In this document: positions 1,979 to 18,471 of the stretch, piece by piece | Layout of the letters: every line of letters starts with the position of its first letter | Position numbering within the stretch: the stretch's first letter is position 1 | Assembly: GCA_049300695.1 (NCBI GenBank) | Contig: JBAQKF010000032.1 | Coordinates: 8,292 to 72,291, forward strand | DNA: 64,000 bases | Direction: 5' to 3' | DNA from: Usitatibacter sp. | Lineage (GTDB): Bacteria; Pseudomonadota; Gammaproteobacteria; Burkholderiales; Usitatibacteraceae | Notes under the pieces: generated by a model | What the model saw: only the letters and a program-made list of their open reading frames with translations | Told to the model about the DNA's origin: nothing | The model's database searches: none | Made by a program: the position numbers and the translations under genes

Positions 1979-3631
1979 TTACTTCTCCCGCTCCTGCAGC
2001 AGCCGCCACTGGATCTTTCCCGTCGCGGATTTCGGCAGGGACTCCTCGAACGAGATGATGGTGGGCACCTTGTATGCGGCCATCTTCGTGCGCGCCCATG
2101 CCGTGATCTCTTCCGCGGTGACCTGGCCCCGCCGCGCGGATTTCAGCACGATGAACACCTTCACGGTCTCGCCGCGGCGCGGATCCTTCGCCGCCACGAC
2201 GCACGCCTCCTGCACGTCCGGGTGCCCGTAGAAGGTCGCTTCGACTTCCGCCGGCCACACCTTGAGCCCCGACGCGTTGATCATCCGCTTCAGGCGATCG
2301 ACGATGAAGTAGTAGCCCTCGTCGTCGCGGCGCCCGAGGTCGCCGGTGCGGAACCACTTCCGGCCGTCCTTCTCGAAGAAGACTTCCTGCGTGGCCTTCT
2401 CCTTGCCCCAATAGCCGAGGAAGATCTGCGGCCCGCTCACGACGATCTCGCCTACTTCGCCGTTCGGCAGCGTCTCCAGGGTGGAAGGATCCACGACCAT
2501 CGACTCGGTGTCGCAGATCGGGATGCCGAGGCACTGCTTCTTCGGACGCTCGGGCGGATTCACGTGCGTGGGCGCCATCGTCTCGCTCAATCCGTAGCCT
2601 TCGACGAACGTGAGGCCGCAGAGCTCCTGCAGCTTCGTCGCCACCGCTTCCGGCATCGCCGCGCCGCCGCCTGTCATTCGCTGCACGCTCGACAGGTCGA
2701 ACTTGGCCGCGTTCGGGCTCGCGAGGAGGTCGACCACCATCGTCGGGATCAGCGTCCACGCCTGGATCTTGTAGCGCGAGATGAGCATCCCCGCGGCCTC
2801 GCGATCCCAGCGCGGCAACAGCACGACCGTGCTGCCCATGTAGATCGGCGAGTTCATCGCGTTCTGCATGCCCGTCACGTGGAAAAACGGCAGCACGCCG
2901 AGATAGATTGTCTCCGCCAGCCCCCGGAACCATGCCATTCCCGCAACGGCCGTGTGCATCACCGAGCGGTGCGTGTGCATGCAGCCCTTGGGCTCGCCCG
3001 TCGTGCCCGACGTGTACGGCATGCAGCAAAGGTCGTCGGGACGCGCGGTGTGCTCGCCCGGAACGAGGTTCGCGGCCATCGCATCGGCCCAGGTCACGAC
3101 CCCTTTTCCCGTGATCGGCTGGCGCGCGAGCTTGAACGCGTCGGGCACCGTGAGGTCCGTGGGCTTCTTCAGGTAATCGCTGTACGCCGCGACGATCGAG
3201 TGCGCCAACGTTCCGTCCTCGGTGAGCGGGGCGGCCTGGGGCCAGAGCTCCTGCGCGATGAACGCGGTCCTGGCCCCGCAGTCGGCGACGATGCGGCGCA
3301 GCTCCGCCGTGAGGTTCATCGGGTTGATCGGCACCACGACCGCGTCGGCACGCAGGATCGCGTAGTAGGCGATGACGAACTGGAAGCTGTTCTGGGCGAA
3401 GACGAGGACGCGATCGCCCTTCGCGACGCCGCAGCGCTTCTGCAGGAATCCCGCGAGCTTTTCCGCCTCCGTCTTCAATGCCGCGAACGTGATCTCGTTG
3501 TCGTAGCAGATGAACGCGGTCTTGCTCGCCTGGCGCTTCGACGAGACCTCGAGGTTGTACCAGAGGCTGGTCTGCGGGGCCGAGAGGTTGTGCGGAACGT
3601 ACTGCGGCCAGAAGGTGCCGCGCTCAGCCAT
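1979..3631 (-). CDS. AMP-dependent acyl-CoA synthetase / long-chain fatty acid-CoA ligase
   Basis: 550-aa ORF with AMP-binding signature [11 protein letters not shown] and C-terminal [22 protein letters not shown]. Its start overlaps the upstream ACAD stop by 8 nt. Confidence 0.9.
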
Positions 3632-4847
3632 GGGCGCGAAGCTCCAGCTTCCCGATCTGGTTGCGATGGACCTCGTCGGGGCCGTCGGCGAGCCGCAGCG
3701 TGCGCGCGCCGGCGTACATCCCGGCGAGTTCGACGTCGTCGGAAACTCCCGCCGCGCCGTACGCCTGGATCGCCCAGTCGATCACCTGGACCGCCATGTT
3801 GGGCGCGGCGACCTTGATCATCGCGATCTCCTTGCGCGCGGCCTTGTTGCCGGCGACGTCCATCTTCCACGCGGCGTTCAGCACCAGCAGGCGCGCCTGG
3901 TCGATCATGATCCGGGCGTTGGCGATGCGCTCGAGCGTCACCGTGCGCTCCGAGACGGGCTTGCCGAACGTCACGCGCGATTGCGTGCGCCGGCACATCA
4001 TCTCGAGCGCGCGCTCGGCCACGCCGATCACGCGCATGCAGTGGTGGATGCGCCCGGGGCCGAGGCGGCCTTGCGCGATCTCGAACCCGCGCCCCTCGCC
4101 CAGGAGGAGGTTCGCCGCGGGAACGCGCACATCCTTGAACTCGAATTCCCCGTGGCCGTGCGGAGCGTCGTCGTCGCCGAAGACGGTGAGCGCGCGAAGC
4201 AGCTTCACGCCGGGCGCATCGACGGGCACGAGGATCATCGACTGGGACTTGTGCTTGTCCACGGCCTCGCCGGGCTGGGCATTTCGCCCCATGAAGATGA
4301 GGATCTTGCAGCGCGGGTCCGGCGCGCCGGTCGTCCACCACTTCTTGCCGTTGACGACGTAGTCGTTGCCGTCGCGCACGATGCTCGCGCGGATGTTGGT
4401 GGCATCGGACGAGGCGACGTCGGGCTCGGTCATCGCGAATGCGGAGCGGATCTCGCCGGCGAGAAGGGGCTCCAGCCACTTCTTCTTCTGCTCGGGCGTG
4501 CCGTAGCGCACCAGCACTTCCATGTTGCCGGTGTCGGGTGCGCTGCAGTTGAACGACTCGGGACCGATCGGCGAGCGGCCCATGATCTCGCAGAGCGGCG
4601 CGTATTCGAGATTGCTGAGCCCCGCGCCGTATTCCGACTCAGGGAGGAAGAGGTTCCACAGTCCCTCGCCGCGCGCCTTCTGCTTGAGCGACTCCATGAC
4701 GCGCGTGGCCTTCCATGGATTGCCCGCCTTCCGGTTGGCCGCGACCTCGTCGCTGAACGGGCGCTCGGCCGGATAGACGTGGGCTTTCATGAACGCGGCG
4801 ATCCGTTCCTGGAGCTCCTGTGTCTTCTTCGAATAGGCGAAATCCAT
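3624..4847 (-). CDS. Acyl-CoA dehydrogenase, ACAD10/ACAD11/FadE2-like subfamily
   Basis: Start trimmed to ATG at 4847 (MDFAYSKK...), preceded by GGAGAAG. Motif run [54 protein letters not shown]. The upstream 37 codons of the track ORF lie inside a repeat element. Confidence 0.9.
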
Positions 4848-4889
4848 TTGCTTCTCCCTGTTTCTACGCTGCGCTGTCGCTAGAGAGTT

Positions 4890-5023
4890 GATCCGCAGAT
4901 AAACGCAGATGAACGCAGATAACCCCGGAAAACTTATATGAGTTTCGTGCCATTGCAAGCGCCATCACGAAGCATATGTAGCTGTTGACCTTATCTGCGT
5001 TCATCTGCGTTCATCTGCGGATC
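4890..5023. repeat. 134-bp inverted-repeat element. The 33-bp arms (32/33 match) are each built from three tandem 10-mers (C/A)CGCAGAT(A/G)A and flank a 68-bp AT-richer core.
   Basis: Left arm 4890-4922 is GATCCGCAGATAAACGCAGATGAACGCAGATAA. Right arm 4991-5023 is its reverse complement with one mismatch. The right arm overlaps the last 7 codons plus stop of the kinase gene. Confidence 0.85.
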
Positions 5024-6092
5024 CAAAGCCTTTTGCCAGGATCCGTTCGGCCTGCTTCCAGCCCTCGTCGGCGATGGCGCGAGTGCGGCTGCCGGCGGAG
5101 AGCGCCTCGGCGCTGGCGGCGTTGCCCTGCAGCGCGCGGGCCTTCACGCCCTGCAGGATCGCGGCAAGGCGGAACATGTTGTAGGCGAGGTAGTACTCGA
5201 AGTGCGGAATCGATTCGCGCCCCGTGAGGCGGCAGTACCGGGCGATGTATTCGCGCTCGCCGGGGATGCCGAGTGCCGCGAGGTCCACGCCCGCGAGGCC
5301 GCGGCCGTGCGCGCCTTCGGGCATGCGCCACGTCATGCAGTGATAGGCGAAGTCGGCGAGCGGATGCCCCAGCGTCGAGAGCTCCCAGTCGAGCACCGCG
5401 AGGATGCGCGGCTCGGCCGGATGGAAGATCACGTTGTCGATGCGATAGTCGCCGTGCACGATCGAGGTCTCTTCGCCCGGCGGCACGTTCTCCGGCAGCC
5501 ACTCGATCAAATTATCCATCGCGTTGATGGTCTCGGTCTGCGAGGCGCGATACTGGCGCGTCCAGCGGTCGATCTGGCGCGCGAGGTAATTGCCGGGCTT
5601 TCCGTAGTCGCCGAGCCCGACTGCTTGAATGTCCACCTTGTGCAGCGCCGCGATCACGCGATTCAACTCGTTGTAGTGCTCCGAGCGCTGCTCGTTCGTG
5701 AGTCCCGGCAACGTGGGATCCCAGAGCACGCGGCCTTCCACGTAGTCGGCGAGGAAGAACGGCGTGCCGATCACTTCCGGATCCTCGCAGAGCACGTACG
5801 TCTTCGGCACGGGAACATCGGTCTTCGCGAGCGCCGTCATCACGCGGTATTCGCGCTCGACGGCGTGGGCGGAAGGCAGCAACTTTCCCGGCGGCTTGCG
5901 GCGCAGCGCGTAACGCCGCGTGCCCGACTCGATGAGGTACGTGGGATTCGACTGCCCGCCCTTGAACTGCGATACGGCGAGCGTGCCCGTCGACTCCTCG
6001 ACGTTCACCCGCATCCACGCGGCGAGACGCTCCGCGTCGAAGGCGAGCGCGGGCGCGACGGGCCGCGTGCCGGTGAATTTCTCGAAGTTCAC
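5001..6092 (-). CDS. Phosphotransferase family protein (APH/choline-kinase fold, ACAD10/11 N-terminal-kinase-like, LvaA-like)
   Basis: GTG start at 6092 overlaps the SDR stop (GTGA). Motifs GGQSNPTYLI, AVEREYRVMTAL, HGDYRIDNVIF, LDWELSTLGHPLADF. The N-terminal 222 codons of the track ORF are an Arg/Gly-rich artefact over the SDR gene. Confidence 0.85.
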   Translation of the reverse strand: MNFEKFTGTRPVAPALAFDAERLAAWMRVNVEESTGTLAVSQFKGGQSNPTYLIESGTRRYALRRKPPGKLLPSAHAVEREYRVMTALAKTDVPVPKTYVLCEDPEVIGTPFFLADYVEGRVLWDPTLPGLTNEQRSEHYNELNRVIAALHKVDIQAVGLGDYGKPGNYLARQIDRWTRQYRASQTETINAMDNLIEWLPENVPPGEETSIVHGDYRIDNVIFHPAEPRILAVLDWELSTLGHPLADFAYHCMTWRMPEGAHGRGLAGVDLAALGIPGEREYIARYCRLTGRESIPHFEYYLAYNMFRLAAILQGVKARALQGNAASAEALSAGSRTRAIADEGWKQAERILAKGFGSADERR

Positions 6093-6862
6093 GAGGAGCT
6101 CTGGCCCCCGTCCACGGCGATGCACTGCCCGGTGATGTGGCGCGCCGCATTGGACGCAAGGAATACAGCCACGCCCTTCAGGTCCTCGTCGCCGCCCAGC
6201 CGGCGCAGCGGCGTCCCCTTGATCACGCGCTCGCCGATGCGTTCGAGGATTCCGCTCGCCATCTTCGTCGGGAAGAATCCCGGGCAGATCGCATTCACGT
6301 TGATGCCGTGCGGGCCCCACTCGGAAGCGAGTGCCCGCGTGAAGTTCACCGCGGCGCCCTTCGAGGTGTTGTAGGCGATCGTATGCATGTCCGACGGTCC
6401 GCCGCGCAATCCCGCGATCGAAGCGACGTTCACGATCTTGCCGCCCTTGTTGGGAATGAAGCACCGCTTCCCGACCTCGCGCGACAGGTGGAACATCGCG
6501 TCGATGTTGAGCGTCATGACCTTGCGCCACGCATCGTCGGGATATTCCTCGGCCTTCGCGCCCCACGTGGCGCCCGCGTTGTTCACCAGGATGTCGATGG
6601 TGCCGAAGTGCTTGACCACTTGATCGACCATCGCCGGGATCTGGTCCAGCTTCGAAAGATCGTTGGCCACCGTGAAGTTCTCGATGCCCTTGGACGAGAG
6701 CTCCTTCGACGCTTCGGCGAGTTCGTCGGCCTTGCGCGCCGTGATCGCGACCTTGCATCCCATCTCGCCCAGCCCCGTGGCGATCTGCAGGCCCAGGCCG
6801 CGCGACCCCCCCGTGATGAGCGCCACCTTGCCCTTCAAATCGAACAGCTCGCGCGTATTCAT
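6089..6862 (-). CDS. Short-chain dehydrogenase/reductase (SDR, 3-oxoacyl reductase-like)
   Basis: ATG at 6862 shares 1 nt with the thiolase stop (TGATG). Motifs TGGSRGLG (cofactor binding), NNAG and YNTSK (catalytic Tyr/Lys). Confidence 0.9.
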   Translation of the reverse strand: MNTRELFDLKGKVALITGGSRGLGLQIATGLGEMGCKVAITARKADELAEASKELSSKGIENFTVANDLSKLDQIPAMVDQVVKHFGTIDILVNNAGATWGAKAEEYPDDAWRKVMTLNIDAMFHLSREVGKRCFIPNKGGKIVNVASIAGLRGGPSDMHTIAYNTSKGAAVNFTRALASEWGPHGINVNAICPGFFPTKMASGILERIGERVIKGTPLRRLGGDEDLKGVAVFLASNAARHITGQCIAVDGGQSSS

Positions 6863-8040
6863 CAGATCACCTCGAAGAGTCCGGCCGCGCCCATGCCGCC
6901 GCCGATGCACATCGTCGCGACGACGTACTTCGCGCCGCGGCGCTTGCCTTCGATCAGCACGTGTCCCGCGAGGCGCGATCCCGAAACGCCGTACGGATGT
7001 CCCACGGCGATCGCGCCGCCGTTCACGTTCAGGCGATCGTCGGGAATGCCCAGGCGGTCGCGGCAGTAGATCACCTGCACCGCGAAGGCTTCGTTGAGCT
7101 CCCACAGGTCGATGTCCTTCACCTTGAGGCCCGTCCGCTCGAGCAGGCGCGGCACCGCGAAGACGGGACCGATGCCCATCTCGTCGGGCTCGCATCCGGC
7201 GATGGCGAAGCCGCGGAAGATGCCGAGGGGCTGGAGCCCGCGCTTCTCGGCGAGCTTGCGCTCCATGACGACGCAAGCCGACGCGCCATCGGAAAACTGG
7301 CTCGCATTGCCCGCGGCGACGACACCACCGGGCATCGCCGGACGAATCTTCGATACGCCCTCGTAGGTCGTGTCGGCGCGGATGCCTTCGTCGGCGGCGA
7401 TCGTGACTTCCTTCGACATGAGGCGGCTCGTGTCCTTGTCGGCCACGCCCATCACCGTCGTCATCGGCACGATCTCGTCCTTGAACTTGCCCGCGGCCTG
7501 CGCGGCGGCCGCGCGTTGCTGGCTCCGCGCGCCGTACTCGTCCTGCTTGTCGCGCGGGATGTTGTAGCGCTTCGCGACAGTCTCGGCGGTCTCGAGCATC
7601 GACCAGTAGAGCTCGGGCTTGTGCTCCGTGATCCAGTGCTCGGCGCGCATGTGCTTGTTCGTCTCCTGCTGCACGCACGAGATGGATTCCACGCCGCCGG
7701 CCACGAGCACGGGCGCCCCCTCGGTGATGACCCGCTGCGCCGCCATCGCGATCGCCTGCAATCCCGACGAGCAGAAGCGGTTCACGGTGACGCCGCCCGC
7801 GGTCACGGGAAGTCCCGCGCGAATCGCGATCTGGCGCGCGATGTTGCCCCCGGTCGCGCCCTCGGGCAGCGCGCAGCCCATGATGACGTCTTCCACCTCG
7901 GCGGGATCGATCTTCGCGCGCTCGACGGCCGCCTTCACGACGTGGCCTCCGAGCGTCGCGCCGTGGGTCATGTTGAATGCGCCGCGCCAGCTCTTCGCCA
8001 GGCCCGTGCGCGCGGTGGAAACGATGACGGCTTCAGTCAT
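6862..8040 (-). CDS. Acetyl-CoA C-acyltransferase (3-ketoacyl-CoA thiolase)
   Basis: 392 aa with thiolase signatures [12 protein letters not shown] (active-site Cys), NEAFA and GGGMG near the C-terminus. Confidence 0.92.
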
Positions 8041-8052
8041 GGCGTGCTCCGT

Positions 8053-10149
8053 TCAATTGAATGTCTTGCCTTCGGCGGCGAGCTTCGCGAGCAAACCCGC
8101 GGGCTCCCAGAAGGCATTGCCGGTCTGGGCGCGATAGCGCTTCATGGCGCGCTCGATGGCGATGAGGCCTGTCATGTCGGCGTAGAGCATGGGGCCGCCG
8201 CGGAAGACCGGGAATCCGTAGCCCGTGAGGTAGACCATGTCGATGTCGGAAGCGCGCTGGGCGATCTTCTCCTCGAGGATCCTCGCCCCTTCGTTGATGA
8301 GCGCATAGACGCAGCGCTCGACGATTTCCTGCTCGCCGATCTTGCGCGGCGTGATGCCGAGCGTCTTCCGCCCGGCCTCGATGATCTTGTCCACGGCGGG
8401 ATCCGGGATCGGGTCGCGCTTGCCGGGCTCGTAGCGATACCAGCCCGCGCCCGTCTTCTGCCCGAAGCGCCCCGCCTCGCACAGCGCGTCGGCGATGACC
8501 AGTTTTTTGAAGCTGGGATCTTCTGCGTAATGGCGCTTGCGGATCGACCAGCTGATGTCGTTGCCGGCGAGGTCTCCCACGCGAAACGGCCCCATGGCCA
8601 TGCCGAACTTCTCCATCGCCTTGTCCACCTGCTGTGGGGACGCGCCCTCCTCCAGCAGCGCGTTGGCCTCGCCCGCGTAGTACTTGAGCATCCGGTTGCC
8701 GATGAATCCGTCGCACACGCCCGACACCACCGCCGTCTTCTTGATCTTCTTGGCGATGTCCATGACCGTGGCGAGCACGTCCTTCCGGGTCTTCTCGCCG
8801 CGCACGACTTCCAGGAGCTTCATCACGTTCGCGGGGCTGAAGAAGTGCATGCCGAGGACATCCTGCGGACGCTTGGTGATCGCGGCGATGTGGTTCACGT
8901 CGAGCGTGGAGGTGTTCGTGGCGAGGATCGCGCCCGCCTTCGCCGTGGCGTCGATCTGCTTGAACACAGTCTCCTTCACGCCCATCTCCTCGAACACCGC
9001 CTCGATCACCAGATCCGCGTCGCCGATGTCCTTGTAGTCGAGCGTGGGCTTGAGGAGCGCCAGGCGCTCGGCCATCTTGTCCTCGGTGAGGCGGCCCTTC
9101 TTCACCGTGCCCTCGTAGTTCTTCCGGATCGTGGCGAGGCCGCGGTCGAGCGCGTCCTGCCTGGTCTCGAGGATGGTGACAGGGAGCCCTGCGTTGAGGA
9201 AATTCATCGCGATGCCGCCACCCATGGTGCCCGCGCCGATCACTGCGACCTTCGCGACCTTGCGGCGCGGCGTGTCCTCGGGCACGTCGGGAATCTTGCT
9301 CGCGGCCCGCTCGCCGAAGAACGCATGGCGAAGCGCGCGCGACTCGGGCCCCATGAGGAGATCCGTGAAGCCTTCGCGCTCGATGCGAAGGCCTTCCTCG
9401 AAGGGCTTGTCGACCGAGGCCGCGACGCAATCGATGCACTTCAACGGCGCGGGGAAATTCTTCGACATCGCGCTCACGGTCTTGCGCGCGAACTGCAGGA
9501 ACGCTTCGGGATTGTCGTGCTTCACCTTCTTGTTGCGCAGCTGCTCGAGGGGGCGCTTTTCGGCCACGACTTTTTTCGCGAACGCGACGGCGCCTTCGAC
9601 CAAATCGCCCTGGATGATCTCGGCGAACAATCCCAGCGCCGCCAGCTGCTCGGACGGCACGCTTGCTCCCGACACGATCATGTTGAGCGCGGCTTCCAGG
9701 CCGATCGCGCGCGGCAGGCGTTGAGTTCCACCGGCACCGGGGAGCAACCCGAGCTTCACTTCCGGCAGCGCCACCTGCGTCCCCGGGGCGGCCACGCGGA
9801 AGTGGCAGCCCAGCGGAAGCTCGAGGCCGCCGCCCATGGCGACCGTGTGCATCGCCGCGATGACGGGCTTCGGGCTTTGCTCGAATGCGGTGATAAGCGT
9901 GCGAAGCGTGGGCTCCGCGAGCATCGCAGGGGTATTGAACTCGCGGATGTCGGCGCCGCCCGAGAAGGCCTTGCCGGCCCCGGTGAGCACGATGGCCTTC
10001 ACCTTGTCGTCGGCGAGCGCGCGATCGAGGCCTTCCAGCGCGGCCGAGCGCACGCTGTAGCTCATGCCGTTCACCGGCGGATTATCCAGCGTCATGAGGG
10101 CGACTTCCCCCCGGGTCTCGTATCGGGCCGTGCCCGTTGCCTTGTCCAC
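8053..10149 (-). CDS. Bifunctional enoyl-CoA hydratase / 3-hydroxyacyl-CoA dehydrogenase (FadB/FadJ-like)
   Basis: GTG at 10149 is preceded by AAGGAGA, 7 nt upstream. N-terminal crotonase fold (LDNPPVNG, GAGKAFSGGADI) and C-terminal Rossmann VAVIGAGTMGGGIA. Upstream track-ORF residues overlap livF and are low complexity. Confidence 0.88.
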   Translation of the reverse strand: MDKATGTARYETRGEVALMTLDNPPVNGMSYSVRSAALEGLDRALADDKVKAIVLTGAGKAFSGGADIREFNTPAMLAEPTLRTLITAFEQSPKPVIAAMHTVAMGGGLELPLGCHFRVAAPGTQVALPEVKLGLLPGAGGTQRLPRAIGLEAALNMIVSGASVPSEQLAALGLFAEIIQGDLVEGAVAFAKKVVAEKRPLEQLRNKKVKHDNPEAFLQFARKTVSAMSKNFPAPLKCIDCVAASVDKPFEEGLRIEREGFTDLLMGPESRALRHAFFGERAASKIPDVPEDTPRRKVAKVAVIGAGTMGGGIAMNFLNAGLPVTILETRQDALDRGLATIRKNYEGTVKKGRLTEDKMAERLALLKPTLDYKDIGDADLVIEAVFEEMGVKETVFKQIDATAKAGAILATNTSTLDVNHIAAITKRPQDVLGMHFFSPANVMKLLEVVRGEKTRKDVLATVMDIAKKIKKTAVVSGVCDGFIGNRMLKYYAGEANALLEEGASPQQVDKAMEKFGMAMGPFRVGDLAGNDISWSIRKRHYAEDPSFKKLVIADALCEAGRFGQKTGAGWYRYEPGKRDPIPDPAVDKIIEAGRKTLGITPRKIGEQEIVERCVYALINEGARILEEKIAQRASDIDMVYLTGYGFPVFRGGPMLYADMTGLIAIERAMKRYRAQTGNAFWEPAGLLAKLAAEGKTFN

Positions 10150-10172: not shown

Positions 10173-10868
10173 TCAGACTTCCAGCCATTCCTTGCGCACC
10201 GCGCCGGCGGCGCGAAGCTCGGCGGGCGTTCCCTCGAACACCACGCGCCCATGGCCGAGAACGTAGACCCGCGCCGAGATGTCCAGCGCGATCGCGAGCT
10301 TCTGCTCCACGAGCAGGATCGGGATGCCGCGGCTGCGGACCTTCTCGAGGAAATGCGCCACGAGATCGACGATCATCGGCGCGAGTCCCTCCGTGGGCTC
10401 GTCGATCATCACGAGCCTGGGATTGCCCATGAGCGTACGGCAAAGGGTGAGCATCTGCTGCTCGCCGCCCGAGAGCACGCCCGCGGGCGTGTCGGCGCGC
10501 ACTTTCAGCTGCGGAAAAAGCGAATACGTATCGTCGACCGTGAAGGGATTGGCTTCGCCGTTGCCCTTGCGGCCGAGCTCCAGGTTCTCCCGCACCGTGA
10601 GGTCCGCGAAGACCGCGCGGTCTTCGGGGACGTACCCCAGGCCGCGGCGGGCGACCTGGTGCGGCTTCAGCCCCGCGATGTCCTGCCCGCGGAAGCGCAC
10701 GGCGCCCTTCGCGGCCACCTGGCCCATGATCGCCTTCACGGTCGTGGAACGGCCGACGCCATTGCGGCCGAGGAGGCTCACGATCTCGCCTTCGCGCACG
10801 TCGAGCGTCACGCCGTGCAGCACGTGGCTCTTGCCGTAGTAGGCGTGCAGGTCGCGGACTTCAAGCAT
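10173..10868 (-). CDS. livF: Branched-chain amino acid-type ABC transporter ATP-binding protein
   Basis: Walker A GRNGVGRST, signature LSGGEQQML and Walker B LVMIDEP. The 231-aa size is typical of LivF. Confidence 0.9.
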   Translation of the reverse strand: MLEVRDLHAYYGKSHVLHGVTLDVREGEIVSLLGRNGVGRSTTVKAIMGQVAAKGAVRFRGQDIAGLKPHQVARRGLGYVPEDRAVFADLTVRENLELGRKGNGEANPFTVDDTYSLFPQLKVRADTPAGVLSGGEQQMLTLCRTLMGNPRLVMIDEPTEGLAPMIVDLVAHFLEKVRSRGIPILLVEQKLAIALDISARVYVLGHGRVVFEGTPAELRAAGAVRKEWLEV

Positions 10869-11631
10869 GGGCGGCAGGGCTCTTATTGTCAGCCTCTCCG
10901 AGGTAGGCCTCGCGCACCTTGGCGTTACCGCGGATCTCCTCGGGCGTGCCGGTGGCGACGATCTTTCCGTAGACGAGCACCGAGATGCGATCGGCCAATC
11001 CGAAGACGACGCTCATGTCGTGCTCGACGATGAGCAGCGTGCGGCCCTCGGTGACGCGCCGGATCAACGCGACCGCGGCTTCCGTTTCCGTCCGGCTCAT
11101 CCCCGCCGTGGGCTCGTCGAGGAGGATCACGCTGGCGCCGCCCGCGATCGTGATGCCGATCTCCAGCGCGCGCTGCTCGGCATAGGAAAGGATTCCCGCC
11201 GGCACGCCCGCGCGGGATGTTAGCCCGATGCGCTCGAGGATCTCCGCGGCGCGCGCGTTCGCGTCGGCAAGCTTCTCCACTCGGCGCCAGAACGAATACT
11301 TGTACCCCAGCGACCAGAAGACGGCGCAGCGCACGTTCTCGAACACCGTGAGCCGATGGAAGAGGTTCGTCACCTGGAAGCTTCGCGAGAGTCCGCGGCG
11401 ATTGATCTGGTACGGCTTCTTCCCGATGATGGACTCGCCGTTCAGCTCGATCCGGCCCGAGCTCACCGGATAGCGCGCACTGATCAAGTGGAAGAGCACC
11501 GACTTGCCCGCGCCGTTGGGACCGATCAACGCGTGGCGCTCGCCCTGCTCCACGCGAAGGTCCACGCCCTGCACGATCTCGGTCGCGCCGAAACGCTTCT
11601 GCACGCCGGCGAGCTCGAGTGCCGCGGTCAT
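10861..11631 (-). CDS. livG: Branched-chain amino acid-type ABC transporter ATP-binding protein
   Basis: ATG at 11631 overlaps the livM stop (ATGA). Walker A GPNGAGKS, signature LSYAEQRALEI and Walker B LLDEPTAGM. Confidence 0.9.
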   Translation of the reverse strand: MTAALELAGVQKRFGATEIVQGVDLRVEQGERHALIGPNGAGKSVLFHLISARYPVSSGRIELNGESIIGKKPYQINRRGLSRSFQVTNLFHRLTVFENVRCAVFWSLGYKYSFWRRVEKLADANARAAEILERIGLTSRAGVPAGILSYAEQRALEIGITIAGGASVILLDEPTAGMSRTETEAAVALIRRVTEGRTLLIVEHDMSVVFGLADRISVLVYGKIVATGTPEEIRGNAKVREAYLGEADNKSPAAHA

Positions 11632-12878
11632 GTCCTGCGGTCCCCGGCGAGCGTCGCCCCCAGCTCGGCCCAGCGAGGTGCGGCGAGGCGCCATGTGAAA
11701 CGCCACGCGGCGAAGGCGGCGACGGTGAGCGCGAGCACGCCGATCCACGCCCCCGTCGCGGTGGTGTCGAGCACCACGCCCAGCACCTTGAAGGGCGAGC
11801 GCGATTCGTCGGACGCGTTGTAGGCCATCTCCACCAGCAGCACGGCAAAGCCCACTGCCAGCGCCGAGGGAATCGCCATGATCGCGTACACGACCGCCGC
11901 GCTCTTCATGAGCTTCGCATCCCAGAGGCGCTTGTGCAGCATCGCCACGCTCGCGAGACCGCCGGGCACGAAGAGCACCGTGGCGAGGAACATCGCACCG
12001 AAGTAGAAGGGCCATGCCTTGGTGACCGAGCCCAGCGCCGTCTGCATGAGCGTGACGACGATGGCGCCCGCCACGGGGCCCGCGAAGAACCCGATGCCGC
12101 CGAGATAGGTCGCGAGCAGCACCATGCCCGAGGTCGACGCCGAAAGCGATTCCGCCGTCACGATCTCGTAGTTGAGCGCCGCGAGCCCGCCCGCGACGCC
12201 GGCGAAGAATCCGGAGAGCGCCACCATCATGAAGCGCACGTGCTGCGGGTCGTAGCCCACGAACTGCGCGCGCTCAGGATTGTCGCGCACAGCGTTGGCC
12301 ATGCGCCCCAGCGGCGTTCGCGAGAGCGCGTACATCGCCGCGGTCGCGAGCAGCAGCCACGCCGCGACGAGGTAATACATCTGGATCTGCGGCCCATAGG
12401 TGATGCCGAGGATCGCGCCACCGGCGGTGCGATTGCCCGAGACGCCCGCCTCGCCGCCGAAGAAAGCGGGAAACATGAGCGAGAGCGCCGCGACCATCTC
12501 GCCGATCCCGAGCGAGATCATGGAGAACGTGGTCCCCGCGCGGCGCGTCGTGACGTAACCGAAGATCACGCCGAAGACGAGTCCCGCGACGCCGCCCACC
12601 AGCGGCATCAGCGTCACGGGGAACTTCCAGCCGGCCTGCACGAGGTTCAGCGCGTGGATGCTGAAAAGCGCGCCCAGGCCGTAGTACACCGCGTGCCCGA
12701 ACGAAAGCAGGCCCGTCTGCCCGAGCAGCATGTTGTACGAGAGCGCGAAGATGATGAGGATGCCCATCTGGCAGAGCAGCGAAAGCGAGAACCCCTTGTT
12801 GAAGACGAGCGGCGCCACGGCGAGCAGCGCGGCGAAGCCGCCCCAGATGATCCATCGTCGGCGCGCGGCCGGACTCAC
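11628..12878 (-). CDS. livM: Branched-chain amino acid-type ABC transporter permease
   Basis: GTG at 12878 overlaps the livH stop (GTGA). Polytopic membrane protein (LLGQTGLLSFGHAVYYGLGA). The upstream part of the track ORF is an artefact over livH. Confidence 0.85.
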   Translation of the reverse strand: MSPAARRRWIIWGGFAALLAVAPLVFNKGFSLSLLCQMGILIIFALSYNMLLGQTGLLSFGHAVYYGLGALFSIHALNLVQAGWKFPVTLMPLVGGVAGLVFGVIFGYVTTRRAGTTFSMISLGIGEMVAALSLMFPAFFGGEAGVSGNRTAGGAILGITYGPQIQMYYLVAAWLLLATAAMYALSRTPLGRMANAVRDNPERAQFVGYDPQHVRFMMVALSGFFAGVAGGLAALNYEIVTAESLSASTSGMVLLATYLGGIGFFAGPVAGAIVVTLMQTALGSVTKAWPFYFGAMFLATVLFVPGGLASVAMLHKRLWDAKLMKSAAVVYAIMAIPSALAVGFAVLLVEMAYNASDESRSPFKVLGVVLDTTATGAWIGVLALTVAAFAAWRFTWRLAAPRWAELGATLAGDRRT

Positions 12879-13762
12879 GTCTCGCGCGTCCCCATCAGGC
12901 CGCGCGGCCGAACGATCAGCATCGCGACCATGATGAGGTACGGCAGCACCGGCGCCACGCGGGAAATGCTCATGCCGTGCCACGAGTAGTCCACGGCGAC
13001 CGCGAACGTCTGCACGATGCCGATGAAAAGTGACGCGACGAAGGCACCCGTGAGCGACCCCAGGCCGCCCACGACGACCACGACGAAGACGATCGTTCCC
13101 AGCGACTCCGCCATGCCGGGATCGGTCACGAAGGCATTGCCGCCGATCACGCCCGCCAGGCCCGCGAGCGCCGTGCCGCCGCCGAACACCAGCATGAACA
13201 CGCGGGGCACGTTGTGGCCCAGGGCCTCCGCCATGTCCGGACGGGTCAGCGCCGCGCGGATCACGAGCCCCACGCGCGTCTTCGTGAGCCCCGCATAAAG
13301 CGCCACGAGCATGCCCACCGACACCAGCATCATGAAAGCCTTGTAGGTGGGAAAGGTCGCGTTGTAGAGCGTGAAGAGCGGGCCGTCGAGCGACGCCGGC
13401 ACTTTGTACGGTACCGGCGTCGATCCCCACACGAGGCGCACCGCCTCGGCGATCACGAACGCGAGGCCGAACGTGAAGAGCAGCTCCGACACGTGCCCCG
13501 TCGCATGGGCCCGGCGGAGGCCATAGCGCTCCACCGCGGCGCCGATCGATCCCACCACGAGCGGCGAGAGGACCAGCGCCGGATAGAACCCGACCTTCGT
13601 GCTGATGGCGTAGCCGAAAAACGCGCCCAGCATGTAGAAGCTCGCGTGGGCGAAATTCAGCACGCCCATCATGCTGAAGATGAGCGTGAGCCCCGACGAG
13701 AGCATGAAGAGCAGCAGCCCGTAGGTCACTCCGTTCAGGAGTGATGAGACGAAAACTTCCAA
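12875..13762 (-). CDS. livH: Branched-chain amino acid-type ABC transporter permease
   Basis: 295-aa hydrophobic protein with N-terminus LLNGVTYGLLLFMLSSGLTLIFSMMGVLNFAH, typical of LivH. Confidence 0.9.
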   Translation of the reverse strand: MEVFVSSLLNGVTYGLLLFMLSSGLTLIFSMMGVLNFAHASFYMLGAFFGYAISTKVGFYPALVLSPLVVGSIGAAVERYGLRRAHATGHVSELLFTFGLAFVIAEAVRLVWGSTPVPYKVPASLDGPLFTLYNATFPTYKAFMMLVSVGMLVALYAGLTKTRVGLVIRAALTRPDMAEALGHNVPRVFMLVFGGGTALAGLAGVIGGNAFVTDPGMAESLGTIVFVVVVVGGLGSLTGAFVASLFIGIVQTFAVAVDYSWHGMSISRVAPVLPYLIMVAMLIVRPRGLMGTRET

Positions 13763-13769
13763 AGGCCGC

Positions 13770-15011
13770 CTACGCTGGGCGCTGCATCTTGCAGGTCGTG
13801 GGCCGCGCGGTGGCGGGTCCTTCGAACCGGACCTCCTGCTTGAAGGTGTAGTCGGCGGTGCCCTCGGCCGTGTAGCGCGCCTTGCCGTCGTTCTTCACGA
13901 AAGTCATCACGAAGAGCGGCTGGATCAGCTGGTGGTCCGTGGCGCGCATCTCCACGGGGCCGAAGGGATCGTCCCACTTCGCGCCCTCCATCGCCTTGGC
14001 GACCTTCACCGGATCCGTGGAGTTGGCCTTCGTCATCGACCGCGTGAGCAGGTCCACGGCGTTACGCATCGATCCCGTGTACGGATCGGCCGTCGCGCCG
14101 TATTTCTTCTTGTACGCGTCGATGTAGCCGGTCTTGCCCGGCGGGAGCGCGTTGGGGTTCCAATAGGTCACGACCTTCACGCGATCCACGCCCGAGTCCC
14201 CAAGCGCCGGCGGGGTGCCGACCACGCCTGCGTAATACGTGTAGAAGTCCGCCTTGAGGTTGGCGTCCTTCGCCGCCTTCACGAGCAGCTGCAGGTCGCT
14301 GCCCCAGTTGCCCGTGATCACCGTGTCGGCGCCCGAGGCCTGGATCTTCGCCACGTAGGGCGCGAAATCCTTCACCTTCGCCAGCGGATGCAGCTCGTCG
14401 CCCACGATCTTCACGTCGGGACGCTTGGCGGCAAGCATTTCACGCGCCGCGCGGGCCACCTGGTGGCCGAACGAGTAGTCCTGGTTGAGCAGGTACACCT
14501 TCTGGATCTTTTTCTCGTCCTTCATGTACGAGGTGAGCGCCTCCATCTTCATGTCGCTGTTGGCGTCGAAGCGGAAGTGCCAGAAGCTGCACTTGTCGTT
14601 GGTGAAGTCGGGATCGACCGCGGCGTAGTTCAGGAACACGACGGTCTTGTCGGGATTGCGCTCGTTGTTCTTGTTGATGGCGTCGATGAGCACGCCGGCC
14701 ACGCTCGAGCCGTTGCCCTGGACGATGTAGCGCACGCCCTGGTCGATGGCCGCCTGGAGCTGGATCTGGCTTTCCTGGGTGGAGAGCTTGTTGTCGAGCG
14801 GCACCACGACCAGCTTCTGCCCGAGGACCCCGCCCCTCGCGTTCACCTGCTCGGCGGCGAATTCGAGCTCATGCAGCCCGTGCTCGCCGGTCGCGGCCAT
14901 GAGGCCCGAGAGCGGATCGATGTAGGCAATCTTGATGTCGGCCGATGCGGCCGCTGCGAATAACGTGACGAGCGCGCAGCAAGCCGCGCGCATGGGGCTG
15001 CGAATGATCAT
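13770..15011 (-). CDS. ABC transporter substrate-binding protein (Leu/Ile/Val-binding protein family, type I PBP)
   Basis: Signal peptide MIIRSPMRAACCALVTLFAAAASA, then IKIAYIDPLSG...RGGVLGQKL. Strong SD (GGAGGAG) precedes the ATG at 15011. Confidence 0.9.
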   Translation of the reverse strand: MIIRSPMRAACCALVTLFAAAASADIKIAYIDPLSGLMAATGEHGLHELEFAAEQVNARGGVLGQKLVVVPLDNKLSTQESQIQLQAAIDQGVRYIVQGNGSSVAGVLIDAINKNNERNPDKTVVFLNYAAVDPDFTNDKCSFWHFRFDANSDMKMEALTSYMKDEKKIQKVYLLNQDYSFGHQVARAAREMLAAKRPDVKIVGDELHPLAKVKDFAPYVAKIQASGADTVITGNWGSDLQLLVKAAKDANLKADFYTYYAGVVGTPPALGDSGVDRVKVVTYWNPNALPPGKTGYIDAYKKKYGATADPYTGSMRNAVDLLTRSMTKANSTDPVKVAKAMEGAKWDDPFGPVEMRATDHQLIQPLFVMTFVKNDGKARYTAEGTADYTFKQEVRFEGPATARPTTCKMQRPA

Positions 15012-15136
15012 GGTCTCCTCCGGTTATGTTGGCCCAGTGATGCTTGCGATCCGGTTGCGCGAGTGTATCGCCGGATAATATGCTCCGCAATTGTGTGCAG
15101 AATGTCGTTCCGCCTCGCGAAATTCCGGAGAACTCC

Positions 15137-16333
15137 TTGAACCTAGACTACTCTGTCGACGAACTCGCATTCCGCGAAGGCGTCCGCGCCTTCATCGCCG
15201 CCTCGCTTCCGAAGGCGCTCGCCGCCAAGGTCCACGAAGGCAAGCGCCTCACCCGCGAGGACTTCGTCACCTGGCACCGGATCCTCGCGAAGAAGGGCTG
15301 GGTGGCGCCCGGCTGGCCCGTGGAGTTCGGCGGACCCGGGTGGAGCGCGGTCCAGCAGCACATCTTCGACGAGGAATGCTCGGCCGCGGGTGCTCCTGTC
15401 GTGCTGCCTTTTGGCGTTCGCATGGTCGCCCCGGTCATCCAGCGCTTCGGCAACGAGGAGCAGAAGCGCCACTTCCTGCCGCGCATCCTCTCGGGCGAGG
15501 ACTGGTGGTGCCAGGGCTATTCGGAACCGGGAGCGGGATCGGATCTCGCATCGTTGAAGACCCGGGCCGAGCGCCAGGGCGACCACTACGTCGTCAACGG
15601 ACAGAAGACGTGGAACACGCTCGGCCAGTGGGCCGACTGGATCTTCTGCCTCGTGCGCACCGCGACCGAGGGCCGGCCCCAGGAAGGCATCTCGTTCCTC
15701 CTCATCGACATGAAATCGCCGGGCGTCACCGTGCGGCCCATCAGGATGCTCGACGGCGAAGCCGAGATCAACGAGATCTGGTTCGAGGACGTGAAAGTGC
15801 CCGTCGCCAATCGCGTGGGCGAAGAGAACAAGGGCTGGACCTACGCCAAGTTCCTGCTGGGCCACGAGCGCACCGGCATCGCGGGCGTGGGACGCAGCAA
15901 GCGCGAGCTGAAGAAGCTGAAGGAGATCGCGCGCCGCGAGCGTTCCGGGGGCCGCCCGCTCATCGAGGATGCGCGCTTCCGCGACCGCATCGCCCAGGCG
16001 GAGATCGAACTCATCGCGCTCGAGGTCACGAACCTTCGCGTGCTGGCCGAGGAGGACACGCGCCGCGCGCCCGGACCCGAGGCCTCGATCCTCAAGGTCC
16101 GCGGCAGCGAGATCCAGCAATCGCTCTCGGAGCTGATGATGCAGGCCGTGGGCTCGTACGGATTGCCCTATGTCCCCGAAGAGCTCGATGCGGGATGGAG
16201 CGGAGAGGCCGCCGGCCCCGAATATGCCGCGCCGCTCGCGGGCCTGTACTTCAACATGCGCAAGACCTCGATCTACAGCGGCTCGAACGAGATCCAGAAA
16301 AACATCATCTCCCAGATGATCCTGGGACTCTAG
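15137..16333 (+). CDS. Acyl-CoA dehydrogenase family protein (first of an adjacent pair)
   Basis: TTG at 15137 lies 4 nt after GGAGAA and gives the typical N-terminus (M)NLDYSVDELAFREGVRAF. An alternative ATG is at 15080. The ACAD fold is visible throughout (WCQGYSEPGAGSDLASL, YVVNGQKTW, IYSGSNEIQKNII). Confidence 0.85.
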   Translation: MNLDYSVDELAFREGVRAFIAASLPKALAAKVHEGKRLTREDFVTWHRILAKKGWVAPGWPVEFGGPGWSAVQQHIFDEECSAAGAPVVLPFGVRMVAPVIQRFGNEEQKRHFLPRILSGEDWWCQGYSEPGAGSDLASLKTRAERQGDHYVVNGQKTWNTLGQWADWIFCLVRTATEGRPQEGISFLLIDMKSPGVTVRPIRMLDGEAEINEIWFEDVKVPVANRVGEENKGWTYAKFLLGHERTGIAGVGRSKRELKKLKEIARRERSGGRPLIEDARFRDRIAQAEIELIALEVTNLRVLAEEDTRRAPGPEASILKVRGSEIQQSLSELMMQAVGSYGLPYVPEELDAGWSGEAAGPEYAAPLAGLYFNMRKTSIYSGSNEIQKNIISQMILGL

Positions 16334-16342
16334 GAAAAGACA

Positions 16343-17488
16343 ATGGACTTCAGCCTCGCCGAAGAGCGCCGCCTCCTGCAGGACACCGTGCGGCGTTTCC
16401 TCGCCAACGAATACAAGTTCGAGAAGCGCCGCGCGATCGTCTCGAGCCCCGAAGGGTTCTCGCGCGACATCTGGAAGCAGCTCGCGGACCTGGGCCTGCT
16501 CGGTCTCACGATGCGCGACGAGGACGGCGGCCTCGCCGGCGACGCCTTCGACACGTCGATCGTGATGGAGGCGTTCGGGCGCGCACTCGTGGTCGAACCG
16601 TACGTCGCGACAGTCGTGCTCGGTGCCGGGATCATTTCCGACGCGGGCAACGCGGCGCAACGCGAGGCCTGGCTCGGCCCCATCGCCGCGGGCGAGAAGC
16701 TGCTCGCGTTCGCGCACACCGAGCCGGCCGCGCGCTACGCGCCGAGTTTCGTGGAAACCAAGGCCAGGCGCGAAGGCGCCGGGTGGAAGATCGACGGCTT
16801 CAAGTCGGTGGTACTGAACGCCGCGAACGCCGACGCGATCATCGTGAGCGCGCGCGCTTCAGGCAACGCCTCGGACCGCGACGGCATCTCGCTCTTCCTC
16901 GTCGATCGCGATGCGCCGGGTGTTTCGCTTCGCGCGTATGCGACGCAGGATGGCGGGCACGCGGCCGACGTGAAGCTTTCGGGCGTCCCGGTTGCGGACG
17001 ATCGCCGAATCGGCGACGCGGGAGCCGCGATCGCCACGATCGAGCGCGCGCTCGACCGCGCCAACGCCGCGCTCTGCGCCGAGGCGCTCGGCATCATCGA
17101 CGCGCTGAACGAAGCCACCCTCGAATACCTGAAGACGCGCAAGCAGTTCGGCCAGCCCATCGGCCGTTTCCAGGCGCTGCAGCATCGAATGGCCGACATG
17201 ACGATCAAGGCCGTCGAGGCGCGTTCGATGGCCGTGGTCGCCGCCGCGGGCATGGGCGAGAAGGACGCGACCCAGCGTTCGCGCCGCGTGAGCGCCGCGA
17301 AGGCCTTCATCGGCCAGGCGTCGCGCTTCGTCGGCCAGCAGGCGATCCAGCTCCACGGCGCCATCGGCGTGACCGACGAGCTCATCGTGAGCCACTGGTT
17401 CAAGCGCCTGACGACGATCAACGCAACGTTCGGCGACGCGGATTTCCACCTCGCGCGATTCAGCGACCTGATGCTCGGCGAGAAATGA
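16343..17488 (+). CDS. Acyl-CoA dehydrogenase family protein (second of an adjacent pair)
   Basis: 381 aa starting MDFSLAEERRLLQDTVRRF, beginning 9 nt after the previous ACAD stop. ACAD C-terminal region QLHGAIGVTDE. Confidence 0.88.
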   Translation: MDFSLAEERRLLQDTVRRFLANEYKFEKRRAIVSSPEGFSRDIWKQLADLGLLGLTMRDEDGGLAGDAFDTSIVMEAFGRALVVEPYVATVVLGAGIISDAGNAAQREAWLGPIAAGEKLLAFAHTEPAARYAPSFVETKARREGAGWKIDGFKSVVLNAANADAIIVSARASGNASDRDGISLFLVDRDAPGVSLRAYATQDGGHAADVKLSGVPVADDRRIGDAGAAIATIERALDRANAALCAEALGIIDALNEATLEYLKTRKQFGQPIGRFQALQHRMADMTIKAVEARSMAVVAAAGMGEKDATQRSRRVSAAKAFIGQASRFVGQQAIQLHGAIGVTDELIVSHWFKRLTTINATFGDADFHLARFSDLMLGEK

Positions 17489-18471
17489 GGGCCGTCATCT
17501 GCTCGCGCCTCGACGGCCCCGAGGCGCTCACGGTGGGCGACATGGTGGCGCCGAAACCCGTGCAAGGCCAGGTGCTGGTGGAAGTGCGCGCGGCCTCGCT
17601 CAACTTCCCCGACGTATTGATGGTGCGCGGCCTGTACCAGGTGAAGCCGCCGCTGCCCTTCTCGCCCGGCGCGGAGCTCTCCGGCGTCGTTCGCGAAATC
17701 GGCCCCGGGGTCGATCGAATCAAGGTGGGCGACTCGGTGATCGGTTTTTCGGGGCATGGAGCCTTTGCGGAGTACTGCGTCGTGGACGCGGCGCGCGTGA
17801 TGCCGATGCCGCCGGGACTTCCGTTCGACGTCGCCGCGGCCGTGGGACTCACGTACGGCACGGCGCTCCATGCGCTTCGCGATTGCGGAGTGCTCAAGTC
17901 CGGCGAGACGCTCGCGGTGTTGGGCGCCGCGGGTGGAACCGGCATCGCGGCGATCGAATGCGGAAAAGCCCTGGGCGCGCGAGTGATCGCGTGCGCGTCG
18001 AGCGAATCGAGGCTCGAGCTTTGCCGCAAGCATGGCGCCGACGAAACGGTGAATTACGCGACGGAGGACCTGCGGGGGCGCCTCGATGCGCTCACGGACA
18101 AACGCGGCGTCGATGTCGTATTCGACGCAGTGGGCGGGGCGTACACGGAGCCCGCGTTCCGCGCGACGGCGTGGAAAGGTCGCCTGCTCGTCGTGGGCTT
18201 CGCCGCCGGCGAGATCCCGAAGATGCCGATCAATCTCGCGCTGCTTCGCGAGCGCTCCATCGTCGGCGTGTATTGGGGCGACTGGACGCGGCGCGATCCC
18301 GCGGGCAACGCGCGCAACATGATGGACATCGCGAAATGGCTGGGCGACGCCACCGTGAAACCGGCGATCACCGAACGCATCGGCCTCGACGCGACGCCCG
18401 ATGCGATCGCGCGCATGGCGAGGCGTGAGATCACGGGCAAGGTCGTCGTCCTCCCGGGGGGGGCGTCGTGA
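17485..18471 (+). CDS. NADPH:quinone oxidoreductase / zinc-independent MDR family oxidoreductase
   Basis: ATG at 17485 overlaps the ACAD stop (ATGA). MRAVICSRLDGPEALTVGD..., PFSPGAELSGVV and nucleotide-binding VLGAAGGTGIAAIE. The upstream 798 codons of the 1126-aa track ORF are an out-of-frame artefact. Confidence 0.88.
   Translation: MRAVICSRLDGPEALTVGDMVAPKPVQGQVLVEVRAASLNFPDVLMVRGLYQVKPPLPFSPGAELSGVVREIGPGVDRIKVGDSVIGFSGHGAFAEYCVVDAARVMPMPPGLPFDVAAAVGLTYGTALHALRDCGVLKSGETLAVLGAAGGTGIAAIECGKALGARVIACASSESRLELCRKHGADETVNYATEDLRGRLDALTDKRGVDVVFDAVGGAYTEPAFRATAWKGRLLVVGFAAGEIPKMPINLALLRERSIVGVYWGDWTRRDPAGNARNMMDIAKWLGDATVKPAITERIGLDATPDAIARMARREITGKVVVLPGGAS

Follow-up and report, generated by a model that had tools for sequence, protein, structure and literature searches.

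Two related systems convert 4-hydroxyacyl-CoAs into 2-enoyl-CoAs by phosphorylating the substrate and then eliminating the phosphate, namely LvaA, LvaB and LvaC of Pseudomonas putida and the mammalian proteins ACAD10 and ACAD11. In P. putida, LvaB is a protein of about 12 kDa that is encoded between kinase and acyl-CoA dehydrogenase (ACAD) and is required together with LvaA. The split pair of Burkholderia pseudomallei, consisting of the kinase Q63VL0 and the ACAD Q63VL1, has been purified by Paquay et al. (PMC11342911), and each protein replaced the matching domain of ACAD10 in vitro without LvaB. A B. pseudomallei kinase of this type made 4-phosphohexanoyl-CoA. Here, we analyze a cluster of four genes on the minus strand of a 64,000-nucleotide stretch of DNA from Usitatibacter sp., a soil betaproteobacterium (contig JBAQKF010000032.1; this whole stretch is called the window below). 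The cluster occupies positions 1979-6862 and encodes a short-chain dehydrogenase/reductase (SDR), a kinase of the aminoglycoside phosphotransferase (APH) fold, an ACAD-fold enzyme and an acyl-CoA ligase. It forms the 3' tail of an 11-gene operon that runs in the order Liv-type ATP-binding cassette (ABC) importer, FadB-like enzyme, thiolase, SDR, kinase, ACAD and ligase (Table 1). As judged from their sequences, the kinase and the ACAD probably represent a separate-gene bacterial form of ACAD10/ACAD11 that acts on 4-hydroxyacyl-CoAs within an operon for uptake and beta-oxidation.

The placement of the ACAD and the kinase is based on bit-score gaps and signature residues. In a search of all PDB sequences, the ACAD matches mouse ACAD11 (8v3u) with 482 bits (E 1.3e-143) and the Mycobacterium abscessus homologue 4hr3 with 460 bits (E 4e-137), whereas the best ordinary ACAD family reaches 135 bits (E 2e-38). 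The identity to the ACAD domain of mouse ACAD11 is 57%, which is within the published range for LvaC (62% and 56% to ACAD10/11). D388, located in the sequence LADGPDE, aligns with the catalytic D753 of mouse ACAD11, the residue that is mutated to asparagine in 8v3v, and the catalytic position thus carries an aspartate in place of the usual glutamate. The HCMR motif at residues 269-272 and R261 (in QGRLGPGR) align with H634-R637 and R626 of ACAD11, respectively. R626, H634 and R637 are the phosphate-binding residues of ACAD11 and are specific to the group according to Rashan et al. (PMC12440821); every residue published as specific to the ACAD10/11 group is retained in the window enzyme.

Three longer motifs are also present in the ACAD: LWNLFLPE at residues 63-70, a 14-residue motif at 99-112 and a 12-residue motif at 140-151. 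The 12-residue proline motif, which includes P759 in ACAD10 and P463 in ACAD11, is kept within residues 99-112, and this segment is identical to the Pseudomonas LvaC sequence in Fig. S7 of Paquay et al. (PMC11342911). The proline motif and the 10-residue signature match both LvaC and the Burkholderia enzyme in the same figure. By these scores and residues, the enzyme is a member of the ACAD10/11-LvaC group, and it is the sole ACAD of this type in the genome. Its predicted function is the elimination of phosphate from a 4-phosphoacyl-CoA to yield a 2-enoyl-CoA. A previous reading of the window made without database searches (the sequence-only reading) had assigned the ACAD to the ACAD10/ACAD11/FadE2 subfamily and had named a position outside the ACAD10/11-LvaC clade as the result that would speak against it; the gap between 482 and 135 bits and the conserved signature residues give the opposite result and support the assignment.

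The kinase has its best PDB match, at E 2.6e-139, in 3dxp from Cupriavidus pinatubonensis, and it matches the kinase domain of mouse ACAD11 with an E-value of 4e-80 and 38% identity, whereas unrelated APH enzymes are found at approximately 1e-13 or worse (3ats at 2e-13). The motifs GGQSNPTY, HGDYRIDN and DWELS are located at residues 45-52, 213-220 and 235-239, respectively. D215, in the HGD sequence that begins with H213, aligns with the catalytic D220 of mouse ACAD11, which is mutated in 8v3u. The metal-binding asparagine (N220) and the DWE motif (D235-W-E237) are both kept. On this evidence, the kinase is a member of the ACAD10/11 group, with phosphorylation of 4-hydroxyacyl-CoA as its predicted function. 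The resemblance to the N-terminal kinase domain of ACAD10/11, which had been proposed from motifs, is therefore confirmed by the E-value of 4e-80 and by the HGD, asparagine and DWE residues, and all of the motifs that had been quoted for the ACAD and the kinase are found at defined residue positions.

The public annotation of such genes, "acyl-CoA dehydrogenase" and "aminoglycoside phosphotransferase", suggests a different explanation, in which the ACAD would be an ordinary FAD-dependent dehydrogenase that serves the FadB-like enzyme and the thiolase, and the APH-fold gene would encode an unrelated small-molecule or antibiotic kinase. The minus-strand operon contains no other ACAD, which is in favor of this explanation. 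Nevertheless, it is hardly credible in light of the replacement of the catalytic glutamate by aspartate, the presence of the phosphate-binding arginine and HCMR, and the inactivity of ACAD10/11 on ordinary acyl-CoAs. Additionally, the NCBIfam models for antibiotic kinases score far under their cut-offs with the window kinase (33 versus 205 bits for aminoglycoside APH(3') and 22 versus 550 bits for macrolide Mph), and an ordinary dehydrogenase can be supplied by a neighboring pair of PimC- and PimD-like genes.

The substrate of the kinase may also be questioned. A 2026 preprint (10.1101/2025.09.10.675409) reports in vitro phosphorylation of 1-O-alkylglycerols (chimyl alcohol) by ACAD10 and by several prokaryotic homologues of its kinase, in some cases only with acetyl-CoA. 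The structure 9o56, which is most likely derived from that study, ranks next after ACAD11 among the PDB matches of the window kinase (E 2.6e-54). The in vitro activity of these prokaryotic homologues of the ACAD10 kinase speaks against a 4-hydroxyacyl-CoA as the substrate; the kinase would instead act on a lipid alcohol such as a 1-O-alkylglycerol, and its adjacency to the ACAD would reflect a different or additional pathway. We consider this highly improbable because 3dxp and the kinases of the Burkholderia type (59% identity) are far more similar to the window kinase, and the B. pseudomallei enzyme that made 4-phosphohexanoyl-CoA belongs to the latter type. The gene is also located in an acyl-CoA operon, beside the predicted consumer of a 4-phosphoacyl-CoA, and the dependence on a CoA ester was observed in the preprint itself.

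A comparison with the described systems shows that the window pair is closest to that of B. pseudomallei: in both cases, the kinase and the ACAD are separate genes without an LvaB partner, the organisms belong to the same bacterial order, and the signature motifs are the same. The window kinase and ACAD are 59% and 67% identical, respectively, to adjacent pairs in Burkholderia and Paraburkholderia loci (L049, L067, L068 and L072), and these congeneric loci are the basis for the orthology to Q63VL0/Q63VL1. Since the two B. pseudomallei proteins could stand in for the ACAD10 domains in vitro, phosphorylation of the 4-hydroxyl followed by elimination of phosphate is known biology. A difference is that the pair stands alone in the Burkholderia loci, whereas the window pair is situated between the SDR and the ligase, behind the FadB-like enzyme, the thiolase and the importer, and is split by a repeat element. 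With mammalian ACAD10/ACAD11 (8v3u, 8v3v; PMC12440821), the window proteins share both catalytic aspartates, HCMR, the upstream arginine and the same predicted two-step chemistry. Unlike the mammalian proteins, they are two polypeptides with no HAD domain and no organelle targeting, and they are encoded in an operon with an importer and a ligase.

The sequence-only reading had also likened the cluster to the lvaABCDE operon of P. putida KT2440 (Rand et al. 2017, as presented in PMC6692424 and PMC12440821), and this likeness holds in part. The same four enzyme classes are present (ligase, SDR, APH-type kinase and ACAD10/11-type ACAD), and the expected chemistry leads from 4-oxo or 4-hydroxy acids to beta-oxidation in both. 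However, the gene order in the window is SDR-kinase-ACAD-ligase, whereas that of lva is kinase-LvaB-ACAD-SDR-ligase, and the regulator that lies nearby belongs to the IclR family, whereas lva is controlled by the sigma-54 regulator LvaR. No open reading frame of the size of LvaB fits in the window cluster, as had been noted before, since the sole gap is 153 nt long and is occupied by the repeat element. LvaA is reported to be 29% identical to the kinase domains of ACAD10/11, compared with 38% for the window kinase and the ACAD11 domain. In its layout, the window module thus does not amount to an orthologue of the lva operon. For comparison with other genomes, four samples were used: the 80 closest loci, 40 class-level loci, 400 genomes across the class and 151 genomes across the order. 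The lva gene order is found in none of the 40 class-level loci.

In the mechanism that we propose, the kinase would use ATP to phosphorylate the 4-hydroxyl of a 4-hydroxyacyl-CoA, and the flavoenzyme would then oxidize the product, eliminate phosphate and re-reduce it to a 2-trans-enoyl-CoA, which the FadB-like enzyme and the thiolase would carry through beta-oxidation. The ligase may activate the imported acid, and the SDR may interconvert 4-oxo- and 4-hydroxyacyl-CoA, as LvaD does. The locus could encounter 4-hydroxyacyl-CoAs by two routes, namely the import of 4-hydroxy or 4-oxo acids and several rounds of beta-oxidation of mid-chain hydroxy fatty acids.

Table 1. Coordinates of the gene cluster, its operon, the repeat element and the divergent operon in the window.
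Feature	Position	Strand	Properties and family matches
Acyl-CoA ligase (AMP-forming)	1979-3631	minus	550 aa, ATG start; Pfam AMP-binding and AMP-binding_C
ACAD10/ACAD11/LvaC-type ACAD-fold enzyme	3624-4847	minus	407 aa, ATG start behind AGGGAG; Pfam Acyl-CoA_dh_N/M/1
Inverted-repeat element of tandem decamers	4890-5023		134 nt, 33-nt arms 97% complementary
ACAD10/11-type APH-fold kinase	5001-6092	minus	363 aa, GTG start; Pfam APH, 193 bits
Classical SDR	6089-6862	minus	257 aa; Pfam adh_short; NCBIfam PRK08213 subfamily, 388 bits
3-Ketoacyl-CoA thiolase	6862-8040	minus	392 aa; Pfam Thiolase_N/C; NCBIfam NF005494 equivalog, 764 bits (cut-off 615)
FadB/FadJ-like enoyl-CoA hydratase / 3-hydroxyacyl-CoA dehydrogenase	8053-10149	minus	Pfam ECH_1, 3HCDH_N, 3HCDH
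Liv-type ABC importer, whole	10173-15011	minus	Pfam Peripla_BP_6, BPD_transp_2 (two), ABC_tran (two)
Importer ATPases	10861-11631 and 10173-10868	minus	
Importer permeases	12875-13762 and 11628-12878	minus	
Importer substrate-binding protein	13770-15011	minus	
Divergent operon (PimC-like and PimD-like ACAD subunits, PIG3-type quinone oxidoreductase, IclR regulator)	15044-19286	plus	
PimC-like and PimD-like ACAD genes, adjacent	15044-17488	plus	NCBIfam TIGR03204, TIGR03203
PIG3-type quinone oxidoreductase	within 15044-19286	plus	TIGR02824
IclR regulator	18468-19286	plus	Pfam HTH_IclR, IclR_C

The genes of the operon overlap or nearly abut. The importer genes are linked by overlaps of 4 to 8 nt, the thiolase and the SDR join in a TGATG overlap, the stop codon of the SDR and the start codon of the kinase share a GTGA overlap, and the ACAD stop and the ligase start overlap by 8 nt. 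The FadB-like gene most likely begins at the GTG at 10149, which is preceded by AAGGAG, rather than at the limit of its open reading frame at 10443. The four minus-strand genes of the cluster had been recognized at the same coordinates from the sequence, and Pfam agrees on all four enzyme classes as well as on the thiolase and the FadB-like enzyme directly upstream. The GTGA and 8-nt overlaps had likewise been described correctly. The accompanying claim that all of these genes are translationally linked is true for the SDR with the kinase and for the ACAD with the ligase, but not for the kinase with the ACAD, which are uncoupled by a spacer of 153 nt (4848-5000).

This spacer is filled by the repeat element, which also provides the final 7 codons of the kinase together with its stop codon; the window kinase has 363 residues, compared with approximately 356 in its relatives. 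The element is a member of a dispersed family that is present at approximately 30 places in the genome, and its RNA is predicted to fold back on itself as a hairpin, with an energy of -74 kcal/mol and a z of -9.5. In the related locus L002, the kinase-ACAD junction measures 10 nt. A role of the hairpin as a terminator was considered and rejected, as no T-run follows the hairpin and the terminator scan is negative at this site. The element may alter the relative levels at which the ACAD and the ligase are expressed.

The nearest homologues from named organisms belong to Usitatibacter. Kinase and ACAD are adjacent in the majority of the 80 closest loci. Among the 44 kinase-bearing genomes of the order that bear on this point, the two genes are adjacent in approximately 20 and unlinked in approximately 17, where they are tens of kilobases apart or on other contigs, which indicates that adjacency is common and not obligatory. 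In the Cupriavidus loci L055, L058 and L063, the distance between them is 5-8 kb. The Cupriavidus necator beta-oxidation operon H16_A1526-A1531 was considered as a possible carrier of the kinase and dropped as unverified; the papers found name only FadB, FadE and thiolase genes. A natural kinase-ACAD fusion in G312 was also rejected, since the open frame of 823 residues is an artefact of high GC content and the two genes lie in different frames. ACAD10/11-type ACADs occur in 39 of the 400 class genomes. At L114 (6638-9722), the gene directly upstream of the pair encodes a member of the histidine phosphatase family (RHG motif), an arrangement also reported for Pseudomonas citronellolis.

The assignment of the SDR and the ligase is less firm than that of the pair. 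The SDR contains the S-Y-K catalytic set, the glycine motif TGGSRGLG and an Arg-Lys after the second strand (ITARK). In SDRs, an arginine in the glycine motif and an Arg-Lys after the second strand are associated with the use of NADPH and a reductive role, and these basic residues therefore point to NADPH use and a reductive role for the window SDR. No specific characterized relative of the SDR is present among its PDB or NCBIfam matches. Among the NCBIfam models, the ligase passes PRK08314, which describes a generic subfamily of long-chain ligases, and it scores 240 bits with the PimA model (cut-off 706). It may be an LvaE-like enzyme that activates an imported acid. A function of the SDR as an LvaD-like 4-oxoacyl-CoA reductase is plausible but unproven, because the linkage evidence runs both ways.

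On one side, the SDR-kinase-ACAD-ligase block, usually behind the FadB-like and thiolase genes, recurs in L001, L002, L003, L006, L007, L012, L040 and L122, with proteins that are 55-90% identical; the ligase orthologue 3' of the ACAD in these eight loci shows 55-74% identity. The full block is distributed over about six genera (Usitatibacter, strain GR16-43, Noviherbaspirillum, Pararobbsia, Rubrivivax and a RIFCSP Burkholderiales metagenome-assembled genome). Partial blocks are found in L009, L010, L015 and L019, and the full and partial blocks together add Aquabacterium and Rhodoferax. The importer upstream of FadB is also kept in L002 and L122. In the distant genome L093, the ACAD, SDR, kinase, ligase and FadB genes are present in another order (ACAD-SDR-kinase-…-ligase-FadB). 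Non-orthologous SDRs (30-40% identity) stand beside ACAD10/11-type ACADs in approximately one-quarter to one-third of the 40 class-level loci, suggesting that a redox step was recruited repeatedly. Across the 151 order genomes, the kinase is found in 47 and the SDR orthologue in 39; both are present in 36, the SDR alone in 3, the kinase alone in 11 and neither in 101.

On the other side, several observations weigh against a single pathway for these genes. The co-occurrence of the SDR and the kinase is a raw count that is uncorrected for phylogeny or genome size, and the SDR orthologue adjoins the kinase in just 3-4 of the approximately 36 order genomes that have both. The SDR orthologue (56-61% identical) is mostly located in a block of the type ABC-FadB-thiolase-(ACAD of approximately 600 residues)-SDR-(ADH_N_2 reductase)-AidB, and the ligase orthologue is adjacent to the pair solely in the same-genus genome G444 of the order sample. 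In the window itself, the very stable hairpin that lies between kinase and ACAD could uncouple their expression.

These observations bear on an explanation in which the assignment of both kinase and ACAD is right and the pair has been inserted beside general parts of FadB-thiolase beta-oxidation, with the SDR acting, for example, as a ketoacyl- or hydroxyacyl-CoA oxidoreductase and the ligase as a broad fatty-acid ligase. Because its orthologues mostly sit in the FadB-thiolase block, which in most of the sampled Burkholderiales includes the ACAD of approximately 600 residues while the kinase is elsewhere, the SDR may serve general beta-oxidation and not a 4-oxo step. The match of the ligase to the generic PRK08314 model, the location of most of its orthologues away from the pair and the lack of a specific characterized relative of the SDR are consistent with this explanation. 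However, the conservation of the four-gene block with translational coupling in at least six genera, the non-orthologous SDRs that flank ACAD10/11-type ACADs in the class-level loci, and the strong co-occurrence of the SDR with the kinase (36 genomes with both against 3 with the SDR only) are not readily explained by it. We give this explanation considerable weight, although somewhat less than an even chance. The earlier proposal that the SDR and the ligase belong to the same pathway as the pair is thus supported by the block in several genera and opposed by the usual position of the SDR orthologue with FadB and thiolase, far from the kinase.

The surroundings of the SDR orthologues vary further. 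At L129 (3563-13043), the order is ABC ATPases, FadB, thiolase, an ACAD of approximately 600 residues (Acyl-CoA_dh_C), the SDR orthologue, an oxidoreductase of the ADH_N_2 type (alkenal/enone reductase-like) and an ACAD resembling AidB, and the kinase is elsewhere; the same block is found in L124, L127, L130, L132, L133 and L137-L139. At L123 (5965-10113), an inserted ADH_N_2 reductase separates the SDR from the kinase. In L099, L101, L102 and L109, the genes after an ACAD10/11-type ACAD (54-59% identity) encode an SDR that is not orthologous (26-34%) and an APH kinase that is only distantly related (31-33%). These four loci represent a second module type in the class, possibly of the LvaA type.

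The operon is faced by a divergent operon on the plus strand that includes the PimC- and PimD-like ACAD genes and the IclR regulator. The PimC-like protein scores 525 bits with TIGR03204 (cut-off 624) and the PimD-like protein 418 bits with TIGR03203 (cut-off 653); these are by far the top NCBIfam matches of the two proteins and are below the equivalog cut-offs. The pimFABCDE genes of Rhodopseudomonas palustris are said to have been described by Harrison and Harwood in 2005 as a cluster for the beta-oxidation of dicarboxylates and fatty acids. Clusters of the pim type serve the beta-oxidation of medium-chain fatty and dicarboxylic acids. The window locus combines a FadB-like enzyme, a thiolase, a ligase, PimC/PimD-like ACADs and Liv-type ABC genes, a combination reportedly shared by pim, and the wider neighborhood resembles a pim-type beta-oxidation locus. 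It also contains the kinase and the ACAD10/11-type enzyme, which pim is not known to have, and the scores with the PimC, PimD and PimA models are below the cut-offs. An argument that no ordinary ACAD is needed, as six genes would be enough for C5-C6 4-oxo acids, is weakened by the divergent PimCD-like pair. Because the importer-to-ligase operon faces this pair and the IclR regulator, the locus may be viewed as one for the uptake and beta-oxidation of organic or fatty acids with a built-in 4-hydroxy bypass.

The chemistry of such a bypass would not be new, since Pseudomonas, Burkholderia and mammals are already known to carry it out, and the window pair would be a further example. The value of the finding lies chiefly in annotation, as genes labeled "aminoglycoside phosphotransferase" and "acyl-CoA dehydrogenase" can be read here as coding for a kinase of 4-hydroxyacyl-CoAs and for a flavoenzyme that eliminates phosphate. 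A more specific proposal, which is tentative and on balance rather unlikely, is that Usitatibacter and a few other Burkholderiales have consolidated otherwise dispersed parts into an operon leading from import to acetyl-CoA for free 4-oxo or 4-hydroxy acids, in which the SDR would be a 4-oxoacyl-CoA reductase or the S-to-R epimerizing partner of an R-preferring kinase. The acids may include levulinate, 4-hydroxyvalerate, gamma-lactone-derived acids and products of oxidized lipids. If this proposal is true, the operon would be the second pathway of the lva-like kind, assembled independently around an LvaB-independent kinase of the animal type. With its importer, SDR and ligase, the operon offers a compact gene set for probing the role of the accessory SDR and the natural acid substrate. 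For the Usitatibacteraceae, a poorly studied soil lineage, the module would provide a way to process 4-hydroxy fatty acids and possibly 4-oxo acids as well.

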